A stretch of DNA of 64,000 nt from assembly GCA_944383905.1 (NCBI GenBank), contig CALWRI010000002.1:36913-100912 (forward strand), written 5' to 3'. Both the position numbers and the translations under genes were made by a program. Below, piece by piece: positions 1,426 to 63,106 of the stretch (position 1 is the first letter of the stretch; the number at the start of each line of letters is the position of its first letter). Under the pieces are notes generated by a model. The model did no database searches and had not been told where the DNA came from. It was given only the letters and a program-made list of their open reading frames with translations. The stretch comes from an uncultured Christensenellaceae bacterium. GTDB lineage: Bacteria; Bacillota; Clostridia; Christensenellales; UBA3700.

Positions 1426-2439
1426 TTACACCTCTCTGCCGACTACCGAAGCGATCTGCTTTATCTGTCCGACGAGGTCGTCGAAGACGTCGGGCTTTAT
1501 CGACTGATTGCCGTCGCAGAGCGCGTGAGCCGGGTCGTTGTGGACCTCGACGATAAGTCCGTCCGCGCCGACCGCTATCGCCGCTCTCGCGAGAGGCTCC
1601 ACCATCCACCATTTGCCCGTTGCGTGAGAAGGATCCACGACTATGGGCAGGTGCGAAAGCTGTTTTACCGCGACGATCGCGCTGAGGTCGAGAGTGTTTC
1701 TCGTATAGGTCTCAAAAGTTCTGATACCTCTTTCGCAGAGAATTATCTGCTCGTTGCCGCCTGCCATTATGTATTCTGCGGACATGAGCCATTCCTCTAT
1801 CGTCGCGCTCAGACCGCGTTTGAGAAGAACGGGCTTTCTCGTCTGACCGAGAAGGCGGAGCAGATCGAAATTCTGCATATTTCTCGCGCCGACCTGGATC
1901 ACGTCCACGTCGCGCACGAATCTGTCAATGTCGAAAGGAGACATGATCTCCGTGACTATCGGAAGTCCCGTGACTTCTCTCGCCTCTTTGAGAAGTTCGA
2001 GCCCCTGATATTTGAGTCCCTGGAACGCATACGGAGAAGTACGCGGCTTGAACGCGCCTCCGCGCAGGAAGTTTGCGCCCGAAGCCTTGACCGCCTTTGC
2101 GACCTCGACTATCTGCGCCTCGCTTTCGACGGAACAAGGGCCCGCCATAAGCGCAAGTTTTTTGCCGCCTATCTTCGTGCCGTTGACGTCAACTATCGTC
2201 GGCTCCGGATGGAACATCTTGTTCGCCTTTTTGAACGGCTCCGCAACGTGCATGACCTTTTCGACGTTGTGGTTAGCCTCTATCTGCGTCGGGTCTATCT
2301 TGCTGGTATCGCCGACGAGACCGAGTATTATCAGATCCTGACCGAAGACGGGGTTGACCTGAACGCCGTAACCGGTAATTTTATCGATAAGACTGTCGAC
2401 CTCGTTTTTCGGGGTATTTGGTTTGAGAATAACTATCAT
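1426..2439 (-). CDS. aroF: 3-deoxy-7-phosphoheptulonate (DAHP) synthase, type I-beta with an N-terminal regulatory domain
   Basis: 337-aa ORF. The catalytic part contains MAGPCSVES...FLRGGAFKPRTSPYAFQGL, preceded by a ~70-aa ferredoxin-like domain. Its stop is 1 nt from the aroB start. Confidence 0.9.
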   Translation of the reverse strand: MIVILKPNTPKNEVDSLIDKITGYGVQVNPVFGQDLIILGLVGDTSKIDPTQIEANHNVEKVMHVAEPFKKANKMFHPEPTIVDVNGTKIGGKKLALMAGPCSVESEAQIVEVAKAVKASGANFLRGGAFKPRTSPYAFQGLKYQGLELLKEAREVTGLPIVTEIMSPFDIDRFVRDVDVIQVGARNMQNFDLLRLLGQTRKPVLLKRGLSATIEEWLMSAEYIMAGGNEQIILCERGIRTFETYTRNTLDLSAIVAVKQLSHLPIVVDPSHATGKWWMVEPLARAAIAVGADGLIVEVHNDPAHALCDGNQSIKPDVFDDLVGQIKQIASVVGREV

Positions 2440-2472
2440 GGTTTTACCTCTGGTAAAAATATTATCTTTTAC

Positions 2473-2501
2473 ATTTTACACTAACGCGCGCAAATAATCA
2501 A
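2473..2501 (-). promoter_or_regulatory. sigma-A-like promoter for the DAHP synthase-aroB-aroA operon
   Basis: On the minus strand: TTGATT, a 17-nt spacer, then TAAAAT preceded by TG. It lies about 35 nt upstream of the ATG at 2439. Confidence 0.55.
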
Positions 2502-3080
2502 GAATACGGATATATTTCTTGTCGTTTTTTGACGGGTAAAAGACACGAAGCCCCCGCCGTGAACGGATAATCCTCATACGCTTATTTCTCACGTCGTGAT
2601 TAATTGCCGTTTGTTAAGCAATACCTTACTCTCGACACTTTCAACAGCAATCTTCTTTTTATCCGACCCGTCTCGTCAATACCCGTAGCATTTGCGGGCT
2701 TCGGGCGACCTTTCGTCTTTACCTTGTCAAAAAACGCTTCGCCCTTTCCTCTACACGGTTTCACCTCCTTGATCGGATGAAAAAAGACAACCCGTATGAG
2801 TTGCCTTTTGAAACACATTGCAAATATTTGTCTCCTGAAAAAATTTCTTTCTCGCAATATTACTCCCTTCGTCGCAAACAAGATTGACCGCTTCCGCATA
2901 ATATCCCTCTGCCCTGTCCTTTTATTTGTCGGGTCAGTCACGCACTCTTAATCCTTGTCTTTACGTCACGACAACAAACAGAACGTGACGTTTCTTTTTA
3001 ACAAAATCAGAGCGATTTGCCTTTTTACATATCCCGTTAATCTGATACGATAAACGCAAATTGCAAAAAAAGGTGCGTAA

Positions 3081-3211
3081 GAGCGTTTCAGGTCCGAAAG
3101 AAAAAAACGCTTCCTGTCAAGTACCTCTCTCCCCGCAAAACAATTGCCGCAAAGGACGGGAACGAGCGCGACCGTGAGCGAGCGTTTCAAGTCCGAACGA
3201 GAAAAAAACGC
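3081..3211. repeat. two copies of a ~31-nt direct repeat (3081-3110 and 3180-3211)
   Basis: GAGCGTTTCAGGTCCGAAAGAAAAAAACGC versus GAGCGTTTCAAGTCCGAACGAGAAAAAAACGC. Each copy can fold through GCGTTT...AAACGC. Confidence 0.8.
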
Positions 3212-3238
3212 GGGGCAATACTCTTTTGTATTGTCCCG
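3202..3238 (-). terminator. rho-independent terminator of leuA
   Basis: On the minus strand: CGGGACAATAC-aaaaga-GTATTGCCCCG followed by CGTTTTTTT, about 50 nt downstream of the leuA stop. Confidence 0.75.
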
Positions 3239-3288
3239 TGGTTTTGACAATGTTCAGGCTTGAAAAAGCCGTTCACAGTCCGTGAGTT

Positions 3289-4965
3289 TCAGTTCTTTGC
3301 GGCAGAAGTATACTTGAGCATCTTGTTTATCGCGCTGACGAGCGCGGAAACCGACGCAGCGATGATGTCGTTGTGGATGCCCACGCCCCAGACCTTCTTG
3401 TCGCCGTACTGCACGCAGACGTAAGCGACTGCCTGCGACCTGGACGTCGTGGTGAGCGCGTGCTCGTGATACTCCGCGATCGTATAGTCCTGCGTGACTA
3501 TGTTGCGCAAAGCGTTGTTGACCGCGTCGAGTCTGCCGTTGCCTATGCCCGACAGCTCCCTGATCTTGCCCTCGTAATCCACCGTTATCACTGTGTGGAT
3601 GTCGCCCTTTTGCTGATAGTGGTGCTCGTACAGCTTTATCGGCTCGACGATATTGATGTAGTTTTTCTCAAAGATATCCATCAATTCGTCGGGTTTGAGC
3701 TCCTTGTGAGCGTGATCGCTGACCGACTTGACGAGATAGCCGAAAGACTCCCTCATATTCTGCGGCAGTACGAATCCGAACGAATTTTCAAGCAGATACG
3801 CGACGCCGCCCTTGCCCGACTGGCTGTTGATGCGGATGACGTCCGCCTCGTAAACTCTGCCGACGTCGTGCGGGTCTATCGGGAGATAAGGCACGTCCCA
3901 TATCTCTTTTTTGTTCGCCTTGCGGTAGTTCATACCCTTTGCGATAGCGTCCTGGTGCGAACCGCTGAACGCGGCGAAAACGAGTCTTCCTCCGTACGGC
4001 TGACGGTCGCTGACGTGGAGTCCCGTCGCCTTTTCGTAAGCCTCGCATACCGCGGGCATATCCGAAAAATCCAGTCCCGGGTCAACGCCCTGCATATACA
4101 TATTCATCGCGACGGTCACGATGTCCGCGTTGCCCGTGCGCTCGCCGTTGCCGAAAAGCGTGCCTTCTATTCTGTCCGCTCCCGCAAGCAGCCCGAGTTC
4201 GCAGTCCGCAACCGCGCAGCCTCTGTCATTGTGCGGATGCAACGATATGAGTACGTTTTCTCTGTCGTGCAGGTTCTTGGACATGAATTCTATCTGTTGA
4301 GCGTAAACGTGAGGCGAACTCATCTCGACGGTTGCCGGAAGGTTGATAATGACCTTTTTGTCCGCAGTCGGCTTCCATACGTCAATGACCGCGTTGCAGA
4401 TCTCGAGCGCAAATTCGGGTTCCGTACCCGTAAAACTTTCGGGCGAATACTCAAACAGGAAGTTGCCCTCCGTCTTCTCTGCATATTCGACGAGAAGTTT
4501 TGCGCCGGTGACGGCGATCTCGACAATCTTATCCTTCGGTTTTTTGAAGACCTGTTCTCTCTGCGCGACCGACGTGGAGTTGTAAAGGTGCACGATAGCC
4601 CTTTTCGCGCCTTTGAGCGCGTCGAAAGTCTTTGCGATAATGTGTTCTCTCGACTGCGTGAGCACCTGAATGGTGACGTCGTCGGGGATAAGATTTTTCT
4701 CTATGAGAGCGCGCAGAAATTCGTATTCCGTCTCGCTCGCGGCGGGAAATCCCACCTCTATTTCCTTGAAGCCTATTTTGCAAAGGAAAGTGAAAAATTC
4801 CAGCTTCTGGTCGAGGCTCATCGGTACGACGAGCGCCTGGTTTCCGTCGCGCAAATCGACGCTGCACCACACGGGAGCCTTGTCGATGCTGTCCTTTCTG
4901 ACCCAATCGTTGCACTCCTCGGGCGGCATAAAGTAACCTTTGCGGTACTTCTCAAAATTTTTCAT
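3289..4965 (-). CDS. leuA: 2-isopropylmalate synthase (long LeuA type)
   Basis: 558-aa ORF containing PVWCSVDLRDGNQALVVPM, HPHNDRGCAVA and a C-terminal LeuA dimerisation/regulatory domain. The RBS is GGAGGG. Confidence 0.9.
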   Translation of the reverse strand: MKNFEKYRKGYFMPPEECNDWVRKDSIDKAPVWCSVDLRDGNQALVVPMSLDQKLEFFTFLCKIGFKEIEVGFPAASETEYEFLRALIEKNLIPDDVTIQVLTQSREHIIAKTFDALKGAKRAIVHLYNSTSVAQREQVFKKPKDKIVEIAVTGAKLLVEYAEKTEGNFLFEYSPESFTGTEPEFALEICNAVIDVWKPTADKKVIINLPATVEMSSPHVYAQQIEFMSKNLHDRENVLISLHPHNDRGCAVADCELGLLAGADRIEGTLFGNGERTGNADIVTVAMNMYMQGVDPGLDFSDMPAVCEAYEKATGLHVSDRQPYGGRLVFAAFSGSHQDAIAKGMNYRKANKKEIWDVPYLPIDPHDVGRVYEADVIRINSQSGKGGVAYLLENSFGFVLPQNMRESFGYLVKSVSDHAHKELKPDELMDIFEKNYINIVEPIKLYEHHYQQKGDIHTVITVDYEGKIRELSGIGNGRLDAVNNALRNIVTQDYTIAEYHEHALTTTSRSQAVAYVCVQYGDKKVWGVGIHNDIIAASVSALVSAINKMLKYTSAAKN

Positions 4966-5981: not shown

Positions 5982-5996
5982 AATTTCCTCCCTGTA

Positions 5997-7028
5997 TTAC
6001 CGTACGATTATCAATTTGAGAATAAGTGCGACGAAAGCGCCGACGCACGCCGCGACGGGGAACGTGAGCATCCAGCTCGTAAAGATCTTTTTCGCCCTTC
6101 CCCAGCGCACCGCGCTGACTCTTTCCGCAATACCGACGCCGATAATGCTCGACGAAACGACCTGTCCCGTGCTTATCGGTATGCCCGCAAACGAGCAAGT
6201 GAGAGCAACCGTTTCAGTCGCCACCTGCGCGGTAAACGACTGCATCGTACCCACTCTGTATATTTTTTTGCCGACGGCATATATCAGTCTGTATCCGCCG
6301 AACACGATGCCCGCCATTATCGCGACGGAAATGAGCGCGACTATCAGAAAATCGAATTGGTACGTCTCAATGTCCACGCCCTTGCATACGGCGAGCGTGA
6401 GCAGGTATATGCCCATCGTCTTCTGCACGTTGTTTATAGAAATGGACGTGCTCATTATCACGACGTTGACGACCTGTGCGACGCGGAAATACTTTTTCAC
6501 GCTCCTGTCGAGATAGACGCATACCGCCCTTGTTATCTTGTTGAGCAAAAAGCCGACCGTCATGCACAAAAGCGGAGTGAGAAAGACCATGAGGATGACC
6601 TTGAGACCGACCGCCGACCAGTTTACGCTCTGAAATCCGAAACAGGCTATCGCCGCGCCGACGAGCCCGCCGAGCAACGTGTGAGACGTGCTGTTGGGAA
6701 CGGATACGAGGACGCAGATCACCGACCAGATGAGAGCGGCTATCATCGTGGAAAGCATAAACACAAAGCCCGCTTTGGGATCCACGCTTTCGAGCGTCTC
6801 GCTGTACACGAGACTGCCGACCGTCCTCGCGACGCTGTCGCTTTTGAGAAAATAGCAGATGACTATGGGAGCAACGAGCATTACAACACCCGCAATGATG
6901 AGCGCGTATCTTGCTTTTATGGCACGGGTAGCCACACAGGTCGCGACGGCATTTGCCCCGTCGGAGAAACCCATGTAAAACGTATATAACATCGCAAAGA
7001 TCATCACAACGATTATGTACGCGTCCAT
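5997..7028 (-). CDS. inorganic phosphate transporter, PiT family
   Basis: Polytopic membrane ORF with GFSDGANAVAT and GIPISTGQVVSSSIIGVG motifs. I start it at MDAYIIVV (7028) rather than at the track start of 7094. Confidence 0.85.
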   Translation of the reverse strand: MDAYIIVVMIFAMLYTFYMGFSDGANAVATCVATRAIKARYALIIAGVVMLVAPIVICYFLKSDSVARTVGSLVYSETLESVDPKAGFVFMLSTMIAALIWSVICVLVSVPNSTSHTLLGGLVGAAIACFGFQSVNWSAVGLKVILMVFLTPLLCMTVGFLLNKITRAVCVYLDRSVKKYFRVAQVVNVVIMSTSISINNVQKTMGIYLLTLAVCKGVDIETYQFDFLIVALISVAIMAGIVFGGYRLIYAVGKKIYRVGTMQSFTAQVATETVALTCSFAGIPISTGQVVSSSIIGVGIAERVSAVRWGRAKKIFTSWMLTFPVAACVGAFVALILKLIIVR

Positions 7029-51876: not shown

Positions 51877-52029
51877 ATCTTCCTCCCGCGGATTTTTGAT
51901 AGTATATAGAAAAATTTAGCAAAATATTCACAAACTACCGTCAAAAGTTGTTGCGCGCGCGAGTGCTTGAGAGTATAATTATATATATTAAATTTATTAT
52001 AATAATTATTTTATAAAGGAAGGATATAT

Positions 52030-53103
52030 ATGAGAGCTTACAATTTTTCCGCAGGTCCCTCGATGCTCCCGCTCGAGGTTCTGCGACAGGCACAAGCGGA
52101 CTTCGTCGACTACCAGGGTTGCGGCATGAGCGTTACCGAAATGAGCCACCGCAGCAAACAGTACGACGCCATTCATCAGGAATGCCTCACTCTTCTCAAA
52201 GAGTTGATGAACGTCCCCGACAACTACAAGATCCTGCTGGTTCAGGGCGGTGCTTCGCAACAGTTTGACGCTATCCCGCTCAACCTCCTGACCGGTTCCG
52301 GAGTTGCGGATTACGTCGTAACGGGCAACTTTGCTAAAAAGGCGTACAAGGCGGCAAAGCCTTTCGGCGACATCCGTCTCGCGGCTTCCTCCGAAGACAA
52401 GACCTACACCTACATTCCCAAGAAGCTCAACCTCTCCGACAATGCAGACTATCTGTACATAACGCAGAACAACACTATCTTCGGCACCCGTTATACAACC
52501 CTGCCCGTTCCCAAAAGCGGCGTACTCGTCTCCGACGTCTCCTCCAACATATTGAGCGAGGAGATGGACGTCAGCAAATACGGTGTCATGTATGCAGGCG
52601 CGCAAAAGAATGTTGCTCCCGCAGGCGTCACCATAATCATCGTACGCGAGGATCTCATCGGCAAAGAGCAGGCGATATGTCCGACCATGCTCAAATGGAG
52701 CACGCAGGCGGACGCGGACAGCCTTTACAACACTCCCCCCTGCTTCTCGATCTACATGGCAATGCTCAACCTGCGTCATCTCAAAAAGTTTGGCGGCGTA
52801 AAGGAGATCCAGAAGGTCAACGAATACAAGGCGGGATTGCTGTACGATTTCATCGACAACAGCTCTTTCTATCACAACTACGTCAACAAAGAAGACCGCT
52901 CCATGATGAACGTGCCTTTCGTGACGGGAGACAAGGATCTCGACGCGAAATTCGTATCCGAAGCGGCAAAGAACGGTCTCCTTTCGATAAAGGGTCACAA
53001 ACTCGTCGGCGGCATGCGCGCTTCCATATACAACGCAATGCCCGTCGAAGGCGTCAAAGCTCTTATCGAGTTCATGAAGAAGTTCGAACTTGAAAACAAG
53101 TAA
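52030..53103 (+). CDS. serC: phosphoserine aminotransferase
   Basis: MRAYNFSAGPSMLPLEVL...GAQKNVAPAG...GGMRASIYNAMP. Confidence 0.92.
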   Translation: MRAYNFSAGPSMLPLEVLRQAQADFVDYQGCGMSVTEMSHRSKQYDAIHQECLTLLKELMNVPDNYKILLVQGGASQQFDAIPLNLLTGSGVADYVVTGNFAKKAYKAAKPFGDIRLAASSEDKTYTYIPKKLNLSDNADYLYITQNNTIFGTRYTTLPVPKSGVLVSDVSSNILSEEMDVSKYGVMYAGAQKNVAPAGVTIIIVREDLIGKEQAICPTMLKWSTQADADSLYNTPPCFSIYMAMLNLRHLKKFGGVKEIQKVNEYKAGLLYDFIDNSSFYHNYVNKEDRSMMNVPFVTGDKDLDAKFVSEAAKNGLLSIKGHKLVGGMRASIYNAMPVEGVKALIEFMKKFELENK

Positions 53104-53115
53104 GCAGGTGAAATC

Positions 53116-54276
53116 ATGATAAACATACTCAAACTCAACGAAATCAGTCCCAAAGTCAAGAGCATTCTGTCCGAGCAATCCTACACCGTGGGCTCCGACG
53201 TAAGCAATCCGCAGGCGATACTTCTGAGAAGTTTCTCCATGCACGATTACGAAGTGCCCGCAAGCGTTCAGGCGGTTGCCCGCGCAGGCGCAGGCGTCAA
53301 CAATATTCCGATAAGCAAGATGACCGAAAAGGGAATCTGCGTATTCAACACCCCGGGCGCAAACGCAAACGCGGTCAAAGAGCTCGTGATAGCAGGTATG
53401 CTTCTCGGCAGCCGCAAGATAGTGCAAGGTATAAATTGGACGCAGTCCCTCAAAGGCGACGACGTGGACAAACAGGTCGAAAAAGGCAAAAAGGCTTTCG
53501 TCGGTCAGGAGATCCAGGGCAAGACCCTCGGCGTCGTCGGTCTCGGCGCGATCGGCAGACTCGTCGCAAACATTGCGATCGAACTCGGTATGACCGTGCT
53601 CGGCTACGATCCTTACCTCAGCGTTGACGGCGCTCTTATGCTCGACAAAAACGTCGTTCACATCACCGACGTCAACCAGCTTTTCGCCGAAGCGGATTAT
53701 GTGACCCTTCACGTCCCCGCCACCGAACAGACCAAAAACATCATCAACGAACAGAGCATCAACACGATGAAGACGGGCGTTGTGATTCTCAACTTCGCAA
53801 GAGGCGAGCTCGTCAACAACGCGGACGTCGTCGAAGCGGTAAAGAGCGGCAAAGTCGGCAGATACGTCACCGACCTTCCCAAGTCGGAACTCCTCGGCAT
53901 CGACAACATCATCACCATTCCCCACCTCGGCGCTTCCACCCCCGAAGCGGAAGACAACTGCGCGGTAATGGCTGCTCGTCAGCTCAAGGACTTCCTCGAA
54001 AACGGCAACGTGGTCAACAGCGTAAACTTCCCGTCCGCTTCCGCTCCGAGAACGGGCGTTTGCCGCGTGAGCATATTGCACAAGAACGTCGCCAATATGA
54101 TCGCGACCGCGACGTCGTTCATAGCAAAAAAAGGCATCAACATCGCAAACCTTGTCTCCGCATCCAGAGGCGAGATCGGCTATATGTTGCTCGACGTCGA
54201 CGCCAACGTGGACGAAGAGACGATCAGGCAGATGCAGAATCAGGAAGGATTTATCAAAGTCAGAGTGTTCGACTGA
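53116..54276 (+). CDS. serA: D-3-phosphoglycerate dehydrogenase
   Basis: GVVGLGAIGRLVA (NAD site), HVPAT, PHLGAST and a C-terminal ACT-like domain. Confidence 0.9.
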   Translation: MINILKLNEISPKVKSILSEQSYTVGSDVSNPQAILLRSFSMHDYEVPASVQAVARAGAGVNNIPISKMTEKGICVFNTPGANANAVKELVIAGMLLGSRKIVQGINWTQSLKGDDVDKQVEKGKKAFVGQEIQGKTLGVVGLGAIGRLVANIAIELGMTVLGYDPYLSVDGALMLDKNVVHITDVNQLFAEADYVTLHVPATEQTKNIINEQSINTMKTGVVILNFARGELVNNADVVEAVKSGKVGRYVTDLPKSELLGIDNIITIPHLGASTPEAEDNCAVMAARQLKDFLENGNVVNSVNFPSASAPRTGVCRVSILHKNVANMIATATSFIAKKGINIANLVSASRGEIGYMLLDVDANVDEETIRQMQNQEGFIKVRVFD

Positions 54277-54295
54277 TAAGCCATACGAAAACGAA

Positions 54296-54328
54296 AAAGA
54301 CGTCTCCTTTACGAGAGACGTCTTTTTT
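54296..54328 (+). terminator. rho-independent terminator of serC-serA
   Basis: AAAGACGTCTC-ctttacga-GAGACGTCTTT extending into a T-run. Confidence 0.85.
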
Positions 54329-54461
54329 ATGCGCCAACGCTGTCTTTCCCGTTTCTTCACCCTTTTACAAAAAACCGCAACCTTGTCAAGACAAGACAGC
54401 CCTCCTCGACCGCGAAAAAAGAAAAACGATATGCCCGGCAAAGCGAATATCCGCGCTTGCG

Positions 54462-54499
54462 GCAAAACGAAAACCGCGAGCCACTGCGGTACGCGGTTT
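54462..54499 (-). terminator. rho-independent terminator of the MMPL gene
   Basis: On the minus strand: AAACCGCG-13 nt-CGCGGTTT followed by TCGTTTT. Confidence 0.7.
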
Positions 54500-54529: not shown

Positions 54530-56830
54530 TTATTGAGACTGCTTCTGCTCTGCCTTTTTGGCGTAGTCGCGCCTTATCGCCCTGTTGCGCAGTCGTTTTA
54601 TTCTTCTCGTTTCCAGCTTTTGATTGCCGGTTGAGATTATCAACAACGCCGGTAGCAACACAAGCACAAGCACGCCGCTTATCACCGCGCCTCTTGCGAT
54701 CATCAACGTGATCTCGCTGACAATTATATTGGTGGTGATCAGAGATACCGACAGACAGCAGCCTGCGAGTATGGCGACCGAAGTCATTATCGAAACGCCG
54801 CTTTCGGTAAGTGCGGCATACGCAGCCTCTCTAGCCGAACGCAGACCGAGATATTTCTGATATTTGACGGTATACAATATAGCATAATCGACTGTCGCGC
54901 CGAGCTGGATCGAACTCAATATGATATATGCCATAAAGTTTATGCTCTGCGAGAAGACGTAGCTGATCGACAAGTTGATGAATATACCGAATTCGATGAC
55001 GAGCACGACGATCGTAGACATCTTAACCGACCGCAGAGTGAACAGAAGTATTACAAGGATAATGGCGATCGAGACGAGAGAAACGACCATAAAATCGGTA
55101 GGAGTGATATCCTGAAGATCGCTGACAGCCTGCGTCATGCCCGTAATGTAATACTCCCCGCTTCCGAACGTATCGTCGAGGATCGACCTGATCTCCTTGA
55201 GCGCGGTCGTTCCTTCGGTCGACTCCGGATCCACGTCGAGCATTACCGAATACATGGTATACCCGTTGTTCAGATATCCCGTGATCATGGACATATCCAT
55301 GCCGGAATTCTGCATAAGTTTGCTCAATCTTTCGTCGCTGACGAGATTGACGATGCCTTCCGCTGTATCCTCGGGGAGCATGGAGAACAATCCCATGACC
55401 GCATTGACGTCGTCGCGGGCGTTTATCTTTTCAAGGAACTCGTATTGCAGCGCCACGTTGCTATCGCCGTCTATCCTTTCCGTCGTCGCGGGCACTATTA
55501 CGACGAGCGAATTGCTCAACTCGTCCACTTTTTGAGTCACAACGCTCGGATTGGGATCTTCTTCAACAAATTTGATATACGACAGTTGAACGAGATTTTG
55601 CAATATTATCGAAGGGATCAACAGCGCAAGAGCTATCGTTACTATCGTCTTTCTGTGCGTAACTGCGAAAGAAGCTACATTTTTGAACTTGGGGACGATT
55701 ATCCTGTGCTGGGTCTTTCTCGCGATCTTCTTTGTAAGAAGCATCAGACACGGTTGCAACAAGATGACCGTGAGAAGGCTGAGGAACACGCCTTTTGCAA
55801 GAACGAGACCGAGGTCTTCTCCGATCTTGAAGCGCATCGCGAACAACGCCAGGAAGCCGCCGACCGTAGTGAGCGCGGACGCGGAGATCGTGGAAAAGGT
55901 CTTGGGTATCGCCCTCTGCATTGCAAGGCTGTCGTCGAGCGTCTTCTTTTGTTCTTCGGCAAACGCATGCATGAGGAATATCGCATAGTCCATTGACAGC
56001 GCGAGCTGAAGCACGGACGAAGCCGCATATGTCACGACGGAAACGCTGGGCAGAATTATGTTCGTACCCATGTTTACCAGGATCGAAACGCCGAGAGTGA
56101 GCATGAGCACTATCGGATCTATTATCGAATTTGTGGTAAGAAGAAGAATAATGAACATGACGAGCACGGCGACGACGATGTATTTGCCGATCTCGCCTAT
56201 CGTGCTGTCGAATATCTCGCGGGTGATTTGCGTGCTTCCTCCCATCGCATAGTCGAAGCCCTTATCCTGCAAAGTTTTTTCTATCCCTTTGAGAAGGTTG
56301 AGCGCTTCGTCCGACGAGCTCGGCACGTTGAGCTGAAGGATCACCCTGTAAACGTTGTTTTCCTGATCGTAAAAAATCTTTTGAATTTCGGGATTTTCAG
56401 ACATCTGCGATGTCATTTCTTTCAGATCGTCGATAGTCAGACCGTAATCCATGATGAGCGCGTTGACAAATGCGGATATTACCGGATCGTCGAGTCTCGA
56501 CCAGTCGATATCCTGCATATCTTTGAGCAATCCGTACCAGATCACCCCGCCGGCTTTTATGCCTTCCTGCGATTCGATATAAGAGACGATCTCCTGCATT
56601 TCCTCATAAGAGGTTCCCTGTACGCCTATGATAGCGTCCCCCTGCATATCGAAGTTGTCCTTCATGAAATTCATGCCCGTGGTCATATCCACTTCTTCGG
56701 GAAGATAGGAAAGGATGTCTGAATTGACATTTACGAACGACAATGCAAAGAGCGAAGCTATCATGACAAGAAGCGTCAGCCCAAGGATAAGCAGCTTGTA
56801 TTTTACTATAAACTTTGCAAAGCGTTTCAT
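54530..56830 (-). CDS. MMPL/RND-superfamily membrane transporter
   Basis: 766-aa ORF with two 6-TM bundles separated by large loops. The N-terminus is MKRFAKFIVKYKLLILGLTLL. Confidence 0.85.
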   Translation of the reverse strand: MKRFAKFIVKYKLLILGLTLLVMIASLFALSFVNVNSDILSYLPEEVDMTTGMNFMKDNFDMQGDAIIGVQGTSYEEMQEIVSYIESQEGIKAGGVIWYGLLKDMQDIDWSRLDDPVISAFVNALIMDYGLTIDDLKEMTSQMSENPEIQKIFYDQENNVYRVILQLNVPSSSDEALNLLKGIEKTLQDKGFDYAMGGSTQITREIFDSTIGEIGKYIVVAVLVMFIILLLTTNSIIDPIVLMLTLGVSILVNMGTNIILPSVSVVTYAASSVLQLALSMDYAIFLMHAFAEEQKKTLDDSLAMQRAIPKTFSTISASALTTVGGFLALFAMRFKIGEDLGLVLAKGVFLSLLTVILLQPCLMLLTKKIARKTQHRIIVPKFKNVASFAVTHRKTIVTIALALLIPSIILQNLVQLSYIKFVEEDPNPSVVTQKVDELSNSLVVIVPATTERIDGDSNVALQYEFLEKINARDDVNAVMGLFSMLPEDTAEGIVNLVSDERLSKLMQNSGMDMSMITGYLNNGYTMYSVMLDVDPESTEGTTALKEIRSILDDTFGSGEYYITGMTQAVSDLQDITPTDFMVVSLVSIAIILVILLFTLRSVKMSTIVVLVIEFGIFINLSISYVFSQSINFMAYIILSSIQLGATVDYAILYTVKYQKYLGLRSAREAAYAALTESGVSIMTSVAILAGCCLSVSLITTNIIVSEITLMIARGAVISGVLVLVLLPALLIISTGNQKLETRRIKRLRNRAIRRDYAKKAEQKQSQ

Positions 56831-60797: not shown

Positions 60798-61448
60798 TCA
60801 GACGGCTTTTATCAGTCTGACCTTTTTCTTTTGGAGCTCTATGAGACCGTCCGCCTGCATACTGGACAGCTCTCTCGTCATCGCGCTCCTGTCCGCACAG
60901 ATATATTCCGCAAGCCTCGTCACCGACATCGGCAGATAAAACTCGTCGCCGTATCTCTTTGCCAGAATGCGAAAATAATACAGCAGTTTTTCCCTCGTCG
61001 TCTTTTTGGACAGTATCTCTATCCTTCTACTCAAAGACAACGTCTTTTTCGCAATGAGGCCGAACATATTGGAAACAAGCCTGCTGTGATGAGCGCACGC
61101 GTTTTCGCACCTCTTGGTTATCTGCGAGTATTTTATGAACATCACCTCGCAGTCGCTTTCCGCCACAACCCTTACGCTGTCGCCGTTCTCGTTTGCAAAT
61201 GCAAGCACTTCACCGAATATGTCGCCTTCGTCAAAGAGCTCGAGCACGGCTATCTCCCCGTCCTCGTCCGTGCGCGTCATTGCAGCTCTCCCGTACATCA
61301 TGACCCCGACCTCGTCGCCGTCTCCCGCATAGTCGCAGACGGTCGCGCCCGCTTTGAAACGTCTGAACGTCGCGCCGAAACAACACATCATTTTTCCGAC
61401 GTCGTCTCCCGATATCCCTTCAAACAGATCGATTTTCGAAAATCTCAT
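60798..61448 (-). CDS. Crp/Fnr-family transcriptional regulator
   Basis: A cNMP-binding-like N-terminal domain plus a C-terminal HTH (MSVTRLAEYICADRSAMTRELSSM). ATG at 61448 follows GAGGAAAAAT. Confidence 0.85.
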   Translation of the reverse strand: MRFSKIDLFEGISGDDVGKMMCCFGATFRRFKAGATVCDYAGDGDEVGVMMYGRAAMTRTDEDGEIAVLELFDEGDIFGEVLAFANENGDSVRVVAESDCEVMFIKYSQITKRCENACAHHSRLVSNMFGLIAKKTLSLSRRIEILSKKTTREKLLYYFRILAKRYGDEFYLPMSVTRLAEYICADRSAMTRELSSMQADGLIELQKKKVRLIKAV

Positions 61449-61461
61449 ATTTTTCCTCAAA

Positions 61462-61479
61462 ATGTTGCATTTGCAACAT
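61462..61479. promoter_or_regulatory. perfect 18-bp palindrome ATGTTGCA-TT-TGCAACAT, candidate Crp/Fnr-type operator
   Basis: It lies between the divergent Crp/Fnr gene and the nrdD-like/fprA operon. Its centre is about 42 bp upstream of the start site predicted from TGtTATATT (61498-61506). Confidence 0.5.
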
Positions 61480-61559
61480 ATATATTTTCACAAAATATGT
61501 TATATTATATACGGTTAAAAGTAAAGCGATTAAGAAAACTAATTAGCGGGAGGACAAAA

Positions 61560-61826
61560 ATGATAAAAGTAAACGTAAACGGCGGCAATCTCGACCAGAA
61601 AGAAATCGACGCATACGTCGAGCACGGCAAGAAGAAATACCCCGACAAGAACATAACGCAGATGGACATCAACGTCGACGGCGATTATGTCGACATCAAA
61701 TACACTTTCGAAAACATACCTTTTGAAAGAATTCGTCGCATCACCGGCTATCTCGTCGGCACTCTCGACCGCTTCAACAATGCAAAGCGCGCCGAAGAGA
61801 GAGACAGAGTGAAACACGGCATCTGA
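61560..61826 (+). CDS. stand-alone 88-aa protein with an NrdD-type glycyl-radical C-terminal motif
   Basis: The C-terminus RIRRITGYLVGTLDRFNNAKRAEERDRVKHGI matches the class III RNR signature R-[IV]-x-G-Y-L...N-x-[AG]-K-x-x-E...R-V-K-H as I recall it. RBS is GGGAGG. The protein has no Cys. Confidence 0.7.
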   Translation: MIKVNVNGGNLDQKEIDAYVEHGKKKYPDKNITQMDINVDGDYVDIKYTFENIPFERIRRITGYLVGTLDRFNNAKRAEERDRVKHGI

Positions 61827-61856
61827 AATCACACTTCACAAAGGAGACAGCAGATT

Positions 61857-63056
61857 ATGGCAGCAAACAAAATTTCCGACAGAATATACAGCGTGGGAGT
61901 TCAGAATCCCGACCTGCGCGTGTTCGATATCGTCATGGCGACGAAATACGGCACAAGCTACAACTCATATATCGTCAAGGGTGAGGAAGTCGCGCTCATC
62001 GAGGCGTCTCACGCCGACTTCGAAGGCGTATACGAAGAAAACATACGTCAGGTCGTCGATCCCGCAAAGATAAAATACGTCATTCTCAACCACACCGAGC
62101 CCGACCATTCGGGTGCGCTCAAAGACATACTCAGGCTGTGCCCCGAAGCGACGGTGCTCGCAAGCGCGGTCGCGCTCAACTACCTGAAAAACATCGTCAA
62201 CGAGCCGTTCAATTCCCGTCCCGTTAAAGACGGCGAAGTGCTCGACCTCGGCGGCGTAACGCTCAACTTTACGACTGCACCCCTTCTTCACTGGCCGGAC
62301 AGCATTTTCACATATTGTCCCGAAGAAAAAACCCTTTTCAGCTGCGACGTATTCGGCTCGCATTACAGCAGCGACAAGACGTTCGACAAGGACATTGCAG
62401 ACGTCGACGGATACAAAGAGGCTTTCAAGGGTTATTACGACGCGATATTCGGGCCCTTCAAACCCTTTGTCGTCGCGGGTATGGCGAAGATAGCGAAATA
62501 CCCGTTCGAGACGGTATGCCCGAGCCACGGACCCGTGCTCACCAAGGAAGGACTCCTCCCCTACGTCCTTGACAGTTACCGCGCGTGGAGCAAGCCCGTA
62601 AGGAACGCCGTTAAAACGGTGCCCGTCTTCTACTGCTCCGCTTACGGCTGCACTGCGAAACTCGCTGCCGCGATCGTCGACGGCGTAAAAGAAGTCATAC
62701 CCGACGCAAATTGCGAAGCGTACGATCTGATAAAGAACGATATGGCTGTCATGCGCGAAAAACTCAACTCGTCCGACGCATTCGCAGTCGGCTCTCCGAC
62801 CCTGAACGCAGACGCGGTTCCCCCCGTGTGGGATCTGCTCGCGGGCATTGACGCGATCAATATCCGCAAGAGACCCGTGGCGGTATTCGGTTCTTTCGGC
62901 TGGAGCGGCGAAGCCGTCCCCAATCTCGTATCGAGACTGACTTCTCTCAAGACCGCCGTCGTCGGAGAAGGCTTCAAAGTATGCTTCGTCCCGACCGACG
63001 CCGACCTCGAAGCGGCGAAGGAATACGGCAAGCAGCTCGCCGCGTCGATAAAATAA
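61857..63056 (+). CDS. FprA-family flavodiiron protein (metallo-beta-lactamase-like plus flavodoxin domains)
   Basis: LNHTEPDHSGAL di-iron motif and a C-terminal flavodoxin fold. RBS is AAAGGAG. It starts 30 nt after the nrdD-like gene. Confidence 0.9.
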   Translation: MAANKISDRIYSVGVQNPDLRVFDIVMATKYGTSYNSYIVKGEEVALIEASHADFEGVYEENIRQVVDPAKIKYVILNHTEPDHSGALKDILRLCPEATVLASAVALNYLKNIVNEPFNSRPVKDGEVLDLGGVTLNFTTAPLLHWPDSIFTYCPEEKTLFSCDVFGSHYSSDKTFDKDIADVDGYKEAFKGYYDAIFGPFKPFVVAGMAKIAKYPFETVCPSHGPVLTKEGLLPYVLDSYRAWSKPVRNAVKTVPVFYCSAYGCTAKLAAAIVDGVKEVIPDANCEAYDLIKNDMAVMREKLNSSDAFAVGSPTLNADAVPPVWDLLAGIDAINIRKRPVAVFGSFGWSGEAVPNLVSRLTSLKTAVVGEGFKVCFVPTDADLEAAKEYGKQLAASIK

Positions 63057-63077
63057 CCCTTTATTCAGGAGTAAAAA

Positions 63078-63106
63078 ATACGATCCGTTGCCGGGTCGTA
63101 TTTTTT
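63078..63106 (+). terminator. rho-independent terminator of the nrdD-like/fprA operon
   Basis: ATACGATCCG-ttgc-CGGGTCGTAT (10 bp with one G.U pair), followed by T6. Confidence 0.85.

Follow-up and report, generated by a model that had tools for sequence, protein, structure and literature searches.

The stretch analyzed herein (the window) comprises 64,000 nucleotides from an uncultured Christensenellaceae bacterium. Close to its end it encodes a protein of 88 amino acids, referred to below as mini-NrdD or simply the mini, which ends in the radical-bearing segment of NrdD, the anaerobic (class III) ribonucleotide reductase (RNR). Comparative evidence makes it highly probable that the mini serves NrdD in trans as a glycyl-radical subunit, with the radical S-adenosylmethionine (SAM) enzyme NrdG as its activase. 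On balance, we also favor the view that the window copy, which shares an operon with a flavodiiron protein, is a stress-induced spare part that re-arms NrdD after its cleavage by O2. More broadly, we lean toward seeing the class III RNR of many Clostridia and phages as a two-component enzyme with its glycine on a detachable subunit, of which the copies in stress operons would be O2/NO-induced spare parts. The gene and its parts are as follows.

61548-61553, plus strand: Shine-Dalgarno sequence GGGAGG of mini-NrdD, 6 nucleotides 5' of the ATG at 61560 (direct reading)
61560-61826, plus strand: mini-NrdD, probable stand-alone glycyl-radical subunit, 88 amino acids plus stop (ATG at 61560, stop at 61824-61826)
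61560-61715, plus strand: N-terminal domain, amino acids 1-52, family-specific, predicted beta-alpha-beta-beta (AlphaFold2 model and conservation)
61716-61823, plus strand: glycyl-radical segment, amino acids 53-88, IPFERIRRITGYLVGTLDRFNNAKRAEERDRVKHGI (homology to the last ~36 residues of NrdD)
61746-61748, plus strand: codon GGC of Gly63, the predicted radical glycine (aligned with the glycine of NrdD ITGYLVG)

The C-terminal ~36 residues of the translation (MIKVNVNGGNLDQKEIDAYVEHGKKKYPDKNITQMDINVDGDYVDIKYTFENIPFERIRRITGYLVGTLDRFNNAKRAEERDRVKHGI), ending …PFERIRRITGYLVGTLDRFNNAKRAEERDRVKHGI, correspond to the extreme C-terminus of NrdD models and contain the motif R-[IV]-x-G-Y-L … R-V-K-H that marks NrdD (RRITGYLVGTLDRFNNAKRAEERDRVKH). 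The Pfam family NRDD (PF13597) matches amino acids 55-86 with its profile positions 533-562 out of 562 (E 2.2e-7), and at 30.4 bits against a cutoff of 26.2 this is the sole curated cutoff passed. The NCBIfam NrdD equivalogs (TIGR02487, PRK14704, and PRK07111) are matched over their last ~33 positions only (E 1.2e-12), the mini staying below their cutoffs with 47.3 versus 736, 45 versus 764, and 28.8 versus 326 bits. Aligned by hhalign with a full-length Clostridial NrdD, the mini profile gives E 2.4e-20 over 39 columns at 74% identity, and it matches the C-terminus of a solved NrdD (PDB 8p23) at E 4.4e-9. At the level of sequence, the match to the NrdD C-terminus is thus far beyond chance. 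The other hallmarks of NrdD are absent: the 88 amino acids hold neither the ten-stranded alpha/beta barrel with the catalytic Cys finger loop nor the four-Cys Zn-ribbon that precedes the radical motif, and there is no Cys at all. A first-pass annotation, made by a model from the letters alone, had described the glycyl-radical signature, the missing barrel, the absence of Cys and thus of the Zn-ribbon cysteines, and a strong Shine-Dalgarno sequence; all of these readings hold, and the NrdD profile match on which it had made its proposal depend is significant.

The N-terminal half is a different matter. In the AlphaFold2 model, it reaches a predicted local distance difference test score (pLDDT) of 74-79 with strands at residues 3-7, 32-40, and 43-50 and a helix at 13-26, and the radical segment stays below 55 in isolation, as would be expected if the loop needs a partner around it in order to fold. 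For the N-terminal domain, no relative was found in Pfam, in a sequence profile search of the PDB, or by hhalign against full NrdD, and a Foldseek search of the PDB with the model returned nothing at E ≤ 0.001. The top Foldseek matches are ribosome hibernation factors (E ~0.04), which can be put down to the generic beta-alpha-beta-beta topology that they share with the mini. Bacterial and phage members nonetheless conserve this domain, with 35-62% identity.

These members form a large family. A protein search with the window mini gave at least 8000 matches, of which the best 120 are all 83-109 amino acids long and 66-100% identical to it. With a family profile of 87 positions, built on an alignment in which the window protein is the first sequence, 1558 representatives were retrieved from a library of 50%-identity clusters at E ≤ 1e-10. 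The best 150 of these are all short (52-236 amino acids), most of them covering nearly the whole profile, and 148 of the 150 keep R-[IV]-x-G-[YF]-[LIM]. The equivalent of Gly63, on whose conservation the first-pass annotation had also relied, is invariant in 32/32 close homologs and in 147/147 aligned representatives of the 50%-identity clusters, over which the radical segment as a whole is near-invariant. The 55 residues preceding the motif hold 0-2 Cys in the representatives, and the four-Cys ribbon is found in none. Members of ~85-100 amino acids share a signature, which the window protein fits, consisting of an N-terminal M-x-[VI]-x-V…E-I-[DN]-x-Y…D-G-[DE]-[YF]-V-[DN] followed by P-F-[EDQ]-R-I-R-R-I-T-G-Y-L-V-G; the operon, phage, and stress-locus members that were compared are 55-72% identical to the window mini. 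One representative of 88 amino acids (P0239) has a degraded motif in which Asp replaces the radical Gly (…YRATDYLVKT…) and is perhaps a decayed copy.

As to distribution, relatives of the mini occur in at least 596 species-level genomes, nearly all of them Clostridia (cultured carriers include Ruminococcus flavefaciens FD-1 and ATCC 19208), and on at least 568 viral contigs of IMG/VR. Among the GenBank phages of INPHARED, a full-length mini is present only in two unannotated metagenomic "Bacteriophage sp." fragments; no cultured phage in that collection carries one, the remaining matches being the C-termini of intact phage NrdDs. Public records label the mini "hypothetical protein" or, by mis-naming, "anaerobic ribonucleoside-triphosphate reductase", and neither Pfam, NCBIfam, nor PHROGs has a dedicated model, all of them matching only the NrdD C-terminus. 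Judged by its sequence relatives, the mini is a member of a large unnamed family and not a fragment. The first-pass annotation had raised the question of how widely such proteins occur and whether they are linked to fprA, nrdD, or nrdG: they are widespread, and they are linked to nrdD and nrdG and, in few loci, to a flavodiiron gene. Some genomes possibly have multiple copies, as one metagenome-assembled genome (JAFSIC01) holds, on separate contigs, two paralogs whose identity to the window mini is 58% and 62% (L067:10001-10255 and L071:787-1038).

The evidence tying the mini to NrdD comes in part from naturally split enzymes. Among 80 viral loci found via the mini, 15 have nrdD directly upstream and nrdG downstream of it. 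All 12 viral NrdD open reading frames (ORFs) that were read end past the Zn-ribbon Cys without the Gly motif, for instance with …CPCCGRTEHITITEKVRRIK and the stop. The viral split loci (L122 (4166-6294), L117, L119, L123, L126-L128, L132, L135, L140, L150, and L170) further carry virion, exonuclease, helicase, MazG, and endolysin genes. An independent survey of phage NrdD that started from the NrdD core gave 77 informative loci with cores 75-100% identical: 62 encode an NrdD that keeps its …PFERIRRITGYLVG…RVKH tail and are without a mini, and the other 15 pair a truncated NrdD with a mini downstream of it. All 77 loci thus hold exactly one Gly motif.

Bacteria show the same arrangement. In a sample of bacterial-type NrdDs formed by the best 120 relatives of the query, 24 are without the Gly motif, and the several tail types among these point to independent losses. 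The five that were looked up (L254, L256, L258, L263, and L264, all on Clostridial chromosomes) have the order nrdD(core)-mini-nrdG-nrdR without exception, with the mini immediately 3' of the core and the whole set among housekeeping genes. Split cores of the phage type are without an ATP-cone, those of the bacterial type have one; in split systems the Zn-ribbon remains on the NrdD core. Truncated cores run to …VRRIK and so end one residue short of the radical glycine, a position that is also the site of O2 cleavage in glycyl-radical enzymes. The stop codon of NrdD and the start codon of the mini share bases in L122 (TAATG), which suggests translational coupling of both subunits, and the AGGAGG encoding the Arg-Arg of …VRRIK serves as the Shine-Dalgarno sequence of the mini (5990-6006). 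The window mini is 55-64% identical to the minis of split systems.

On the sequences of these loci, class III RNR is naturally split at its radical domain in phages and Clostridia, with the mini as the sole Gly carrier there; that the family also supplies the obligate radical subunit of natural split NrdDs had not been foreseen by the first-pass annotation. If the RNR genes of these phages and bacteria are not all dead, the mini must supply the radical in trans to the core, and it is very likely that its radical loop works in trans with an NrdD core. Since the split core resembles an O2-cleaved NrdD, the activity of the mini in these systems would be just what a spare part needs.

That an intron or intein produced the split in the phages was considered and rejected, because the insert has a stop, a Shine-Dalgarno sequence, and a start (the TAATG overlap) as well as a conserved domain. 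Two of the viral loci have an extra ORF between truncated nrdD and mini (L117:4755-5819, 354 amino acids, and L150:5375-5899, 174 amino acids), for which a split-causing mobile element is conceivable.

The mini is likewise found in operons with an intact NrdD. With the split systems included, the order nrdD-mini-nrdG-nrdR is seen in L011, L091/L092, L093, L254-L258, L263, and L264; in L011, a full-length nrdD precedes the mini, and nrdG and nrdR come after it. In at least 10 operons nrdG lies directly 3' of the mini. Where NrdD is intact, the mini and the 32-amino acid radical segment of its own NrdD are identical at 32/32, 32/32, and 30/32 positions with 6-8 synonymous codon differences, and each mini is closer to its own NrdD than to the NrdDs of other genomes. 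Such identity despite synonymous differences indicates that the segment is constrained as the NrdD radical domain is, which would be expected if one pocket and one activase serve both. A full-length NrdD (P0383) has a radical segment that is 31/32 identical to that of the window mini.

Two minor features of these operons may be mentioned. In the Clostridium sp. CAG:1219-type operon, a protein of 217-244 amino acids, which has a hydrophobic segment at its N-terminal end and matches no Pfam family, is encoded between intact nrdD and mini (L091:5833-6486 and L092:5833-6567). Short Cys-rich tails (…ECSCAEF, …HSVCC, …ECGCCDF, …SECNCD, and …YECCFN) are found on many minis and on part of the intact NrdDs and truncated cores, e.g., at L011:4699-4983 and 2330-4669, L254:6548-6817, L258:6340-6624, and L256:4001-6289. 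They recall the C-terminal redox Cys pairs of class I/II RNRs and are absent from the window mini.

In the window, the surroundings of the mini are of another kind: no nrdD, nrdG, or nrdR is present within the 64 kb, and the gene is the first of a two-gene operon with the following elements.

60798-61460, minus strand: Crp/Fnr-family regulator, divergent from the mini (Pfam)
61463-61478, no strand: perfect palindrome TGTTGCA-TT-TGCAACA (TGTTGCATTTGCAACA), candidate Crp/Fnr operator (motif scan)
61498-61506, plus strand: extended -10 TGtTATATT, promoter of the mini-flavodiiron operon (direct reading)
61842-61846, plus strand: Shine-Dalgarno sequence AGGAG of the flavodiiron gene (direct reading)
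61857-63056, plus strand: class A flavodiiron protein (FprA type, O2/NO reductase), 399 amino acids, second gene of the operon (Pfam and PDB matches)
63073-63106, plus strand: intrinsic-terminator-like hairpin with U-run closing the two-gene operon (free energy -19.3 kcal/mol, z -4.77)

The second gene product combines a metallo-beta-lactamase-like diiron domain (Pfam ODP, E 6.5e-23, and Lactamase_B, amino acids 34-225) with a C-terminal flavodoxin domain (Flavodoxin_1, amino acids 257-389) and has no extra modules, which is the layout of class A flavodiiron proteins. It aligns over its full length with 1ycf ("Nitric oxide reductase", E 1.6e-61), 2ohh (FprA), and 1e5d (rubredoxin:oxygen oxidoreductase) of the PDB. 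Flavorubredoxin-type models of NCBIfam span the full length below cutoff, and the NCBIfam scan found no rubredoxin domain. A gap of 30 nucleotides separates the two genes and a scan found no terminator-like site inside it; for the closing hairpin, none of 200 shuffles folded equally stably. Both the close spacing to an FprA-type gene without an intervening terminator and the neighboring Crp/Fnr regulator with its palindromic site, as given by the first-pass annotation, are confirmed.

The regulator ORF was listed from a TTG at 61460, with the ATG at 61448 as the likelier start, and shows cNMP_binding (PF00027, amino acids 33-119, E 6.8e-13) and HTH_Crp_2 (PF13545, amino acids 161-216, E 9.8e-8); NCBIfam adds weak FixK/FnrL/CRP matches only. 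The palindrome at 61463-61478 is likely, from its sequence and position, to be the operator of this regulator: it is the sole match in the window at ≤2 mismatches, with 0.12 expected. Downstream of it, the extended -10 was missed by the consensus scanner because it has no -35 match, and it aligns with a conserved TATGATACAAT element 3' of the operator in Ruminococcus loci. With the start site placed from this -10, the operator center would lie ~42 nucleotides upstream, a class II activator-like position. A second palindrome (GATTTTCGAAAATC) is found at 61431-61444, inside the 5' end of the Crp/Fnr ORF, and five Ruminococcus loci (L015, L018, L019, L025, and L030) have ATGTTAT-N6-GTAACAT ~120-130 nucleotides upstream of the mini; lying close to the start of the regulator gene, these second palindromes may be autoregulatory sites.

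Parts of this arrangement recur elsewhere. The mini-flavodiiron pair with its divergent regulator is also present in Candidatus Ornithoclostridium (72%, 63%, and 57% identity, respectively). In 11-13 related loci an ortholog of the regulator is likewise divergent from the mini, and in 13 of 82 loci the operator TGTTGCAnnTGCAACA (≤1 mismatch), with a conserved extended -10 element 3' of it, lies 83-157 nucleotides upstream of the mini start; these 13 are the loci with an adjoining Crp/Fnr-like gene (L028 was assigned by gene position only). In 10-11 Ruminococcus/Oscillospiraceae loci, a rubredoxin-rubrerythrin gene stands 3' of the regulator-mini arrangement, and in L086 a Mn-catalase-like gene follows the mini. 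This context supports a link of the mini to oxidative stress. Flavodiiron, Crp, rubrerythrin, and MetK genes were searched for around the 80 viral mini loci and none were found.

Other neighbors were seen in smaller sets of loci. The SAM synthetase gene metK lies 3' of the mini in 6-7 loci (L039, L040, L046, L047, L048, e.g., 3518-4699, and L066), a pairing that is either functional, SAM being the co-substrate of a radical-SAM activase, or a matter of lineage synteny. In Acholeplasmatales-type loci (L080:3717-8222 and L084:7862-10234) the mini is 3' of a PcrA/UvrD helicase gene, and L080 has a NAD-dependent DNA ligase gene downstream, a replication/repair context. A distant Crp/Fnr-like gene, 21% identical to the window regulator, stands convergent just past nrdR in L011 (6063-6668, minus strand). 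The same-strand upstream and convergent downstream neighbors in 71 genome loci are otherwise heterogeneous, with no further recurrent theme.

How the parts may work together can be sketched as follows. O2 cleaves glycyl-radical enzymes, NrdD included, at the radical glycine (PMC12288474; PMC13450708). NrdG would abstract a hydrogen from Gly63 of the mini, whose loop would then enter the barrel of an NrdD core lacking a functional radical domain. The N-terminal domain may dock the mini on this core, replacing the covalent link that follows the core-borne Zn-ribbon. The divergent Crp/Fnr regulator, with its activator-positioned operator, probably controls the mini-flavodiiron operon, so that after cleavage of NrdD fresh mini could re-arm the surviving core and the flavodiiron protein could remove the oxidant. 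A partner reducing both O2 and NO fits this scheme since NO also inactivates class III RNR irreversibly (bioRxiv 10.1101/2025.02.23.639758). The first-pass annotation had proposed a GrcA-like repair module for NrdD that is induced together with O2 detoxification. This proposal is partly supported: strongly so for the link to NrdD and NrdG (nrd operons, split NrdDs, and co-variation) and by context for the link to stress (flavodiiron protein, rubrerythrin, and operator), with the rescue of O2-cleaved NrdD and the induction still putative.

Several points weigh against a stress-induced spare part. The case for it is built from sequence and comparative genomics. About 70% of the 71 loci unlinked to nrd genes have unrelated neighbors, and the stress link is thus carried by few lineages, roughly the clades of Ruminococcus and of the window and Ornithoclostridium, besides single cases. 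The Crp/Fnr regulator reaches no NCBIfam equivalog cutoff, so the models fix neither its subfamily nor the signal that it senses. Gene conversion could explain part of the identity between adjacent radical segments, against which the 6-8 synonymous differences argue as far as a very recent event is concerned. The AlphaFold2 model of the mini is only moderate (mean pLDDT 64.8), and a docking role for an N-terminal domain with no detectable relative is conjecture. Finally, that of an obligate subunit is a possible role of the window mini, as a full-length NrdD in the window genome is, like activation by NrdG, docking, and induction by O2 or NO, something that we infer.

This last alternative is the likeliest rival, even if we regard it as rather unlikely. 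It holds that an nrdD elsewhere in the genome is without a radical domain, which would leave the mini as the only Gly carrier for all anaerobic synthesis of deoxynucleoside triphosphates, with the flavodiiron pairing merely protecting a consumable subunit. Split systems are indeed common, amounting to ~20% of the bacterial-type NrdDs (24/120) and 15/77 of the phage NrdDs, and their minis belong to the same family as that of the window at the identities given above. Yet the split systems examined, all five bacterial ones and all those of phages, have the mini directly after the truncated nrdD and ahead of nrdG, to the point of apparent translational coupling in L122, whereas a distance of at least 61 kb separates the window mini from any nrd gene. 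A dedicated regulator site shared with a detoxification gene would, moreover, be odd for an essential, constitutive subunit, and the radical segment of the window mini finds its 31/32 match in the full-length NrdD P0383. A spare part is therefore favored: the minis that are sole carriers are all tightly linked to nrdD and the window mini is not linked to nrd genes, it is wired to its own regulator site together with a detoxification gene, and full-length NrdD and mini coexist in several genomes.

An improbable alternative is a regulatory decoy or radical buffer, in which the mini would compete for NrdG or hold the radical and so lower or buffer RNR activation under oxidative stress. The full activase recognition segment of the mini and its apparent co-expression with stress genes, as read from the operon, would suit such a role. 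However, split systems would use the loop productively, its glycine being the only one in those loci, and a decoy would need neither a conserved docking domain nor co-variation with the NrdD segment. A spare part for another glycyl-radical enzyme such as pyruvate formate-lyase (PFL) has the precedent of GrcA on its side, which concerns PFL, and is nevertheless very hard to defend: the motif is NrdD-specific, Pfam NRDD alone is matched and Gly_radical (PF01228) is not at E ≤ 1, no GrcA model is matched in NCBIfam, the operon partners are nrdD, nrdG, and nrdR, and the radical segment co-varies with that of NrdD. A mis-called ORF or functionless 3' remnant of a decaying nrdD, which the restriction of NrdD likeness to the C-terminal ~36 amino acids and the "hypothetical" calls of some public pipelines might suggest, has a negligible chance and was rejected on the conservation of the ORF, its start, Shine-Dalgarno sequence, N-terminal domain, and length of ~85-100 amino acids over hundreds of species and phages, with a near-invariant radical segment.

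Among known proteins, the mini, taken as a spare part for NrdD, stands closest to the PFL cofactors GrcA/YfiD of E. coli and Y06I of phage T4. Like these, it is a small stand-alone carrier of a radical loop (88 amino acids, with the radical segment at 53-88), its family has phage members and a link to oxidative stress, and by analogy it is presumably activated by the activase of the parent enzyme and acts in trans with a core without a radical domain. The mini does not belong to their family. Its radical segment is of the NrdD type and not of the PFL type, and the overlap with the parent enzyme covers ~10 residues before and 25 after the glycine, whereas YfiD has ~40 before. The N-terminal half is predicted to be folded and that of YfiD is disordered (PMC8683613; PMC13450708), and unlike GrcA the family also provides the sole radical carrier of naturally split enzymes. 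With NrdD ("Anaerobic ribonucleoside-triphosphate reductase" in PDB 8p23) the mini shares the C-terminal …RITGYLVGT.DR[FW]N..K.AE..DRV.H; unlike NrdD, it has no ATP-cone, catalytic barrel, thiyl-radical finger loop, or four-Cys Zn-ribbon, and it has an extra domain. For an RNR chain split over two adjacent genes, the class II NrdJa/NrdJb of Pseudomonas aeruginosa provides a precedent (PMC9669993), although the class and the split point differ and the radical element is not separated as a small replaceable subunit.

A review of glycyl radical enzymes from June 2026 knows spare parts only for formate lyases (PMC13450708), in agreement with the statement of the first-pass annotation that no equivalent had been described for class III RNR. 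Our literature searches, which did not reach subscription-only papers, returned no description of an NrdD spare part or of a split class III RNR. If our reading is true, the mini would thus be the first spare-part protein for a glycyl-radical enzyme other than PFL, and NrdD the first such enzyme naturally split at its radical domain. O2 destroys glycyl-radical enzymes irreversibly and the sole known repair part is GrcA/YfiD for PFL; the mini family would be an abundant and concrete candidate for the DNA-precursor enzyme of strict anaerobes. Whether spare part or obligate subunit, the oxygen-labile element would be the small, replaceable part. This could explain how DNA synthesis of gut and rumen Clostridia survives pulses of O2 or NO, would offer an 88-amino acid minimal substrate for the study of radical installation by NrdG as well as a two-piece class III RNR for engineering, and would correct a systematic mis-annotation. 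The natural split enzymes, on their part, are ready-made test systems for an explicitly open question.

Away from the operon, the window holds on its minus strand an ORF of 819 amino acids (52006-54465) that has no Pfam family at E ≤ 0.001 and adjoins an MMPL-family transporter gene (54530-56830, minus strand).

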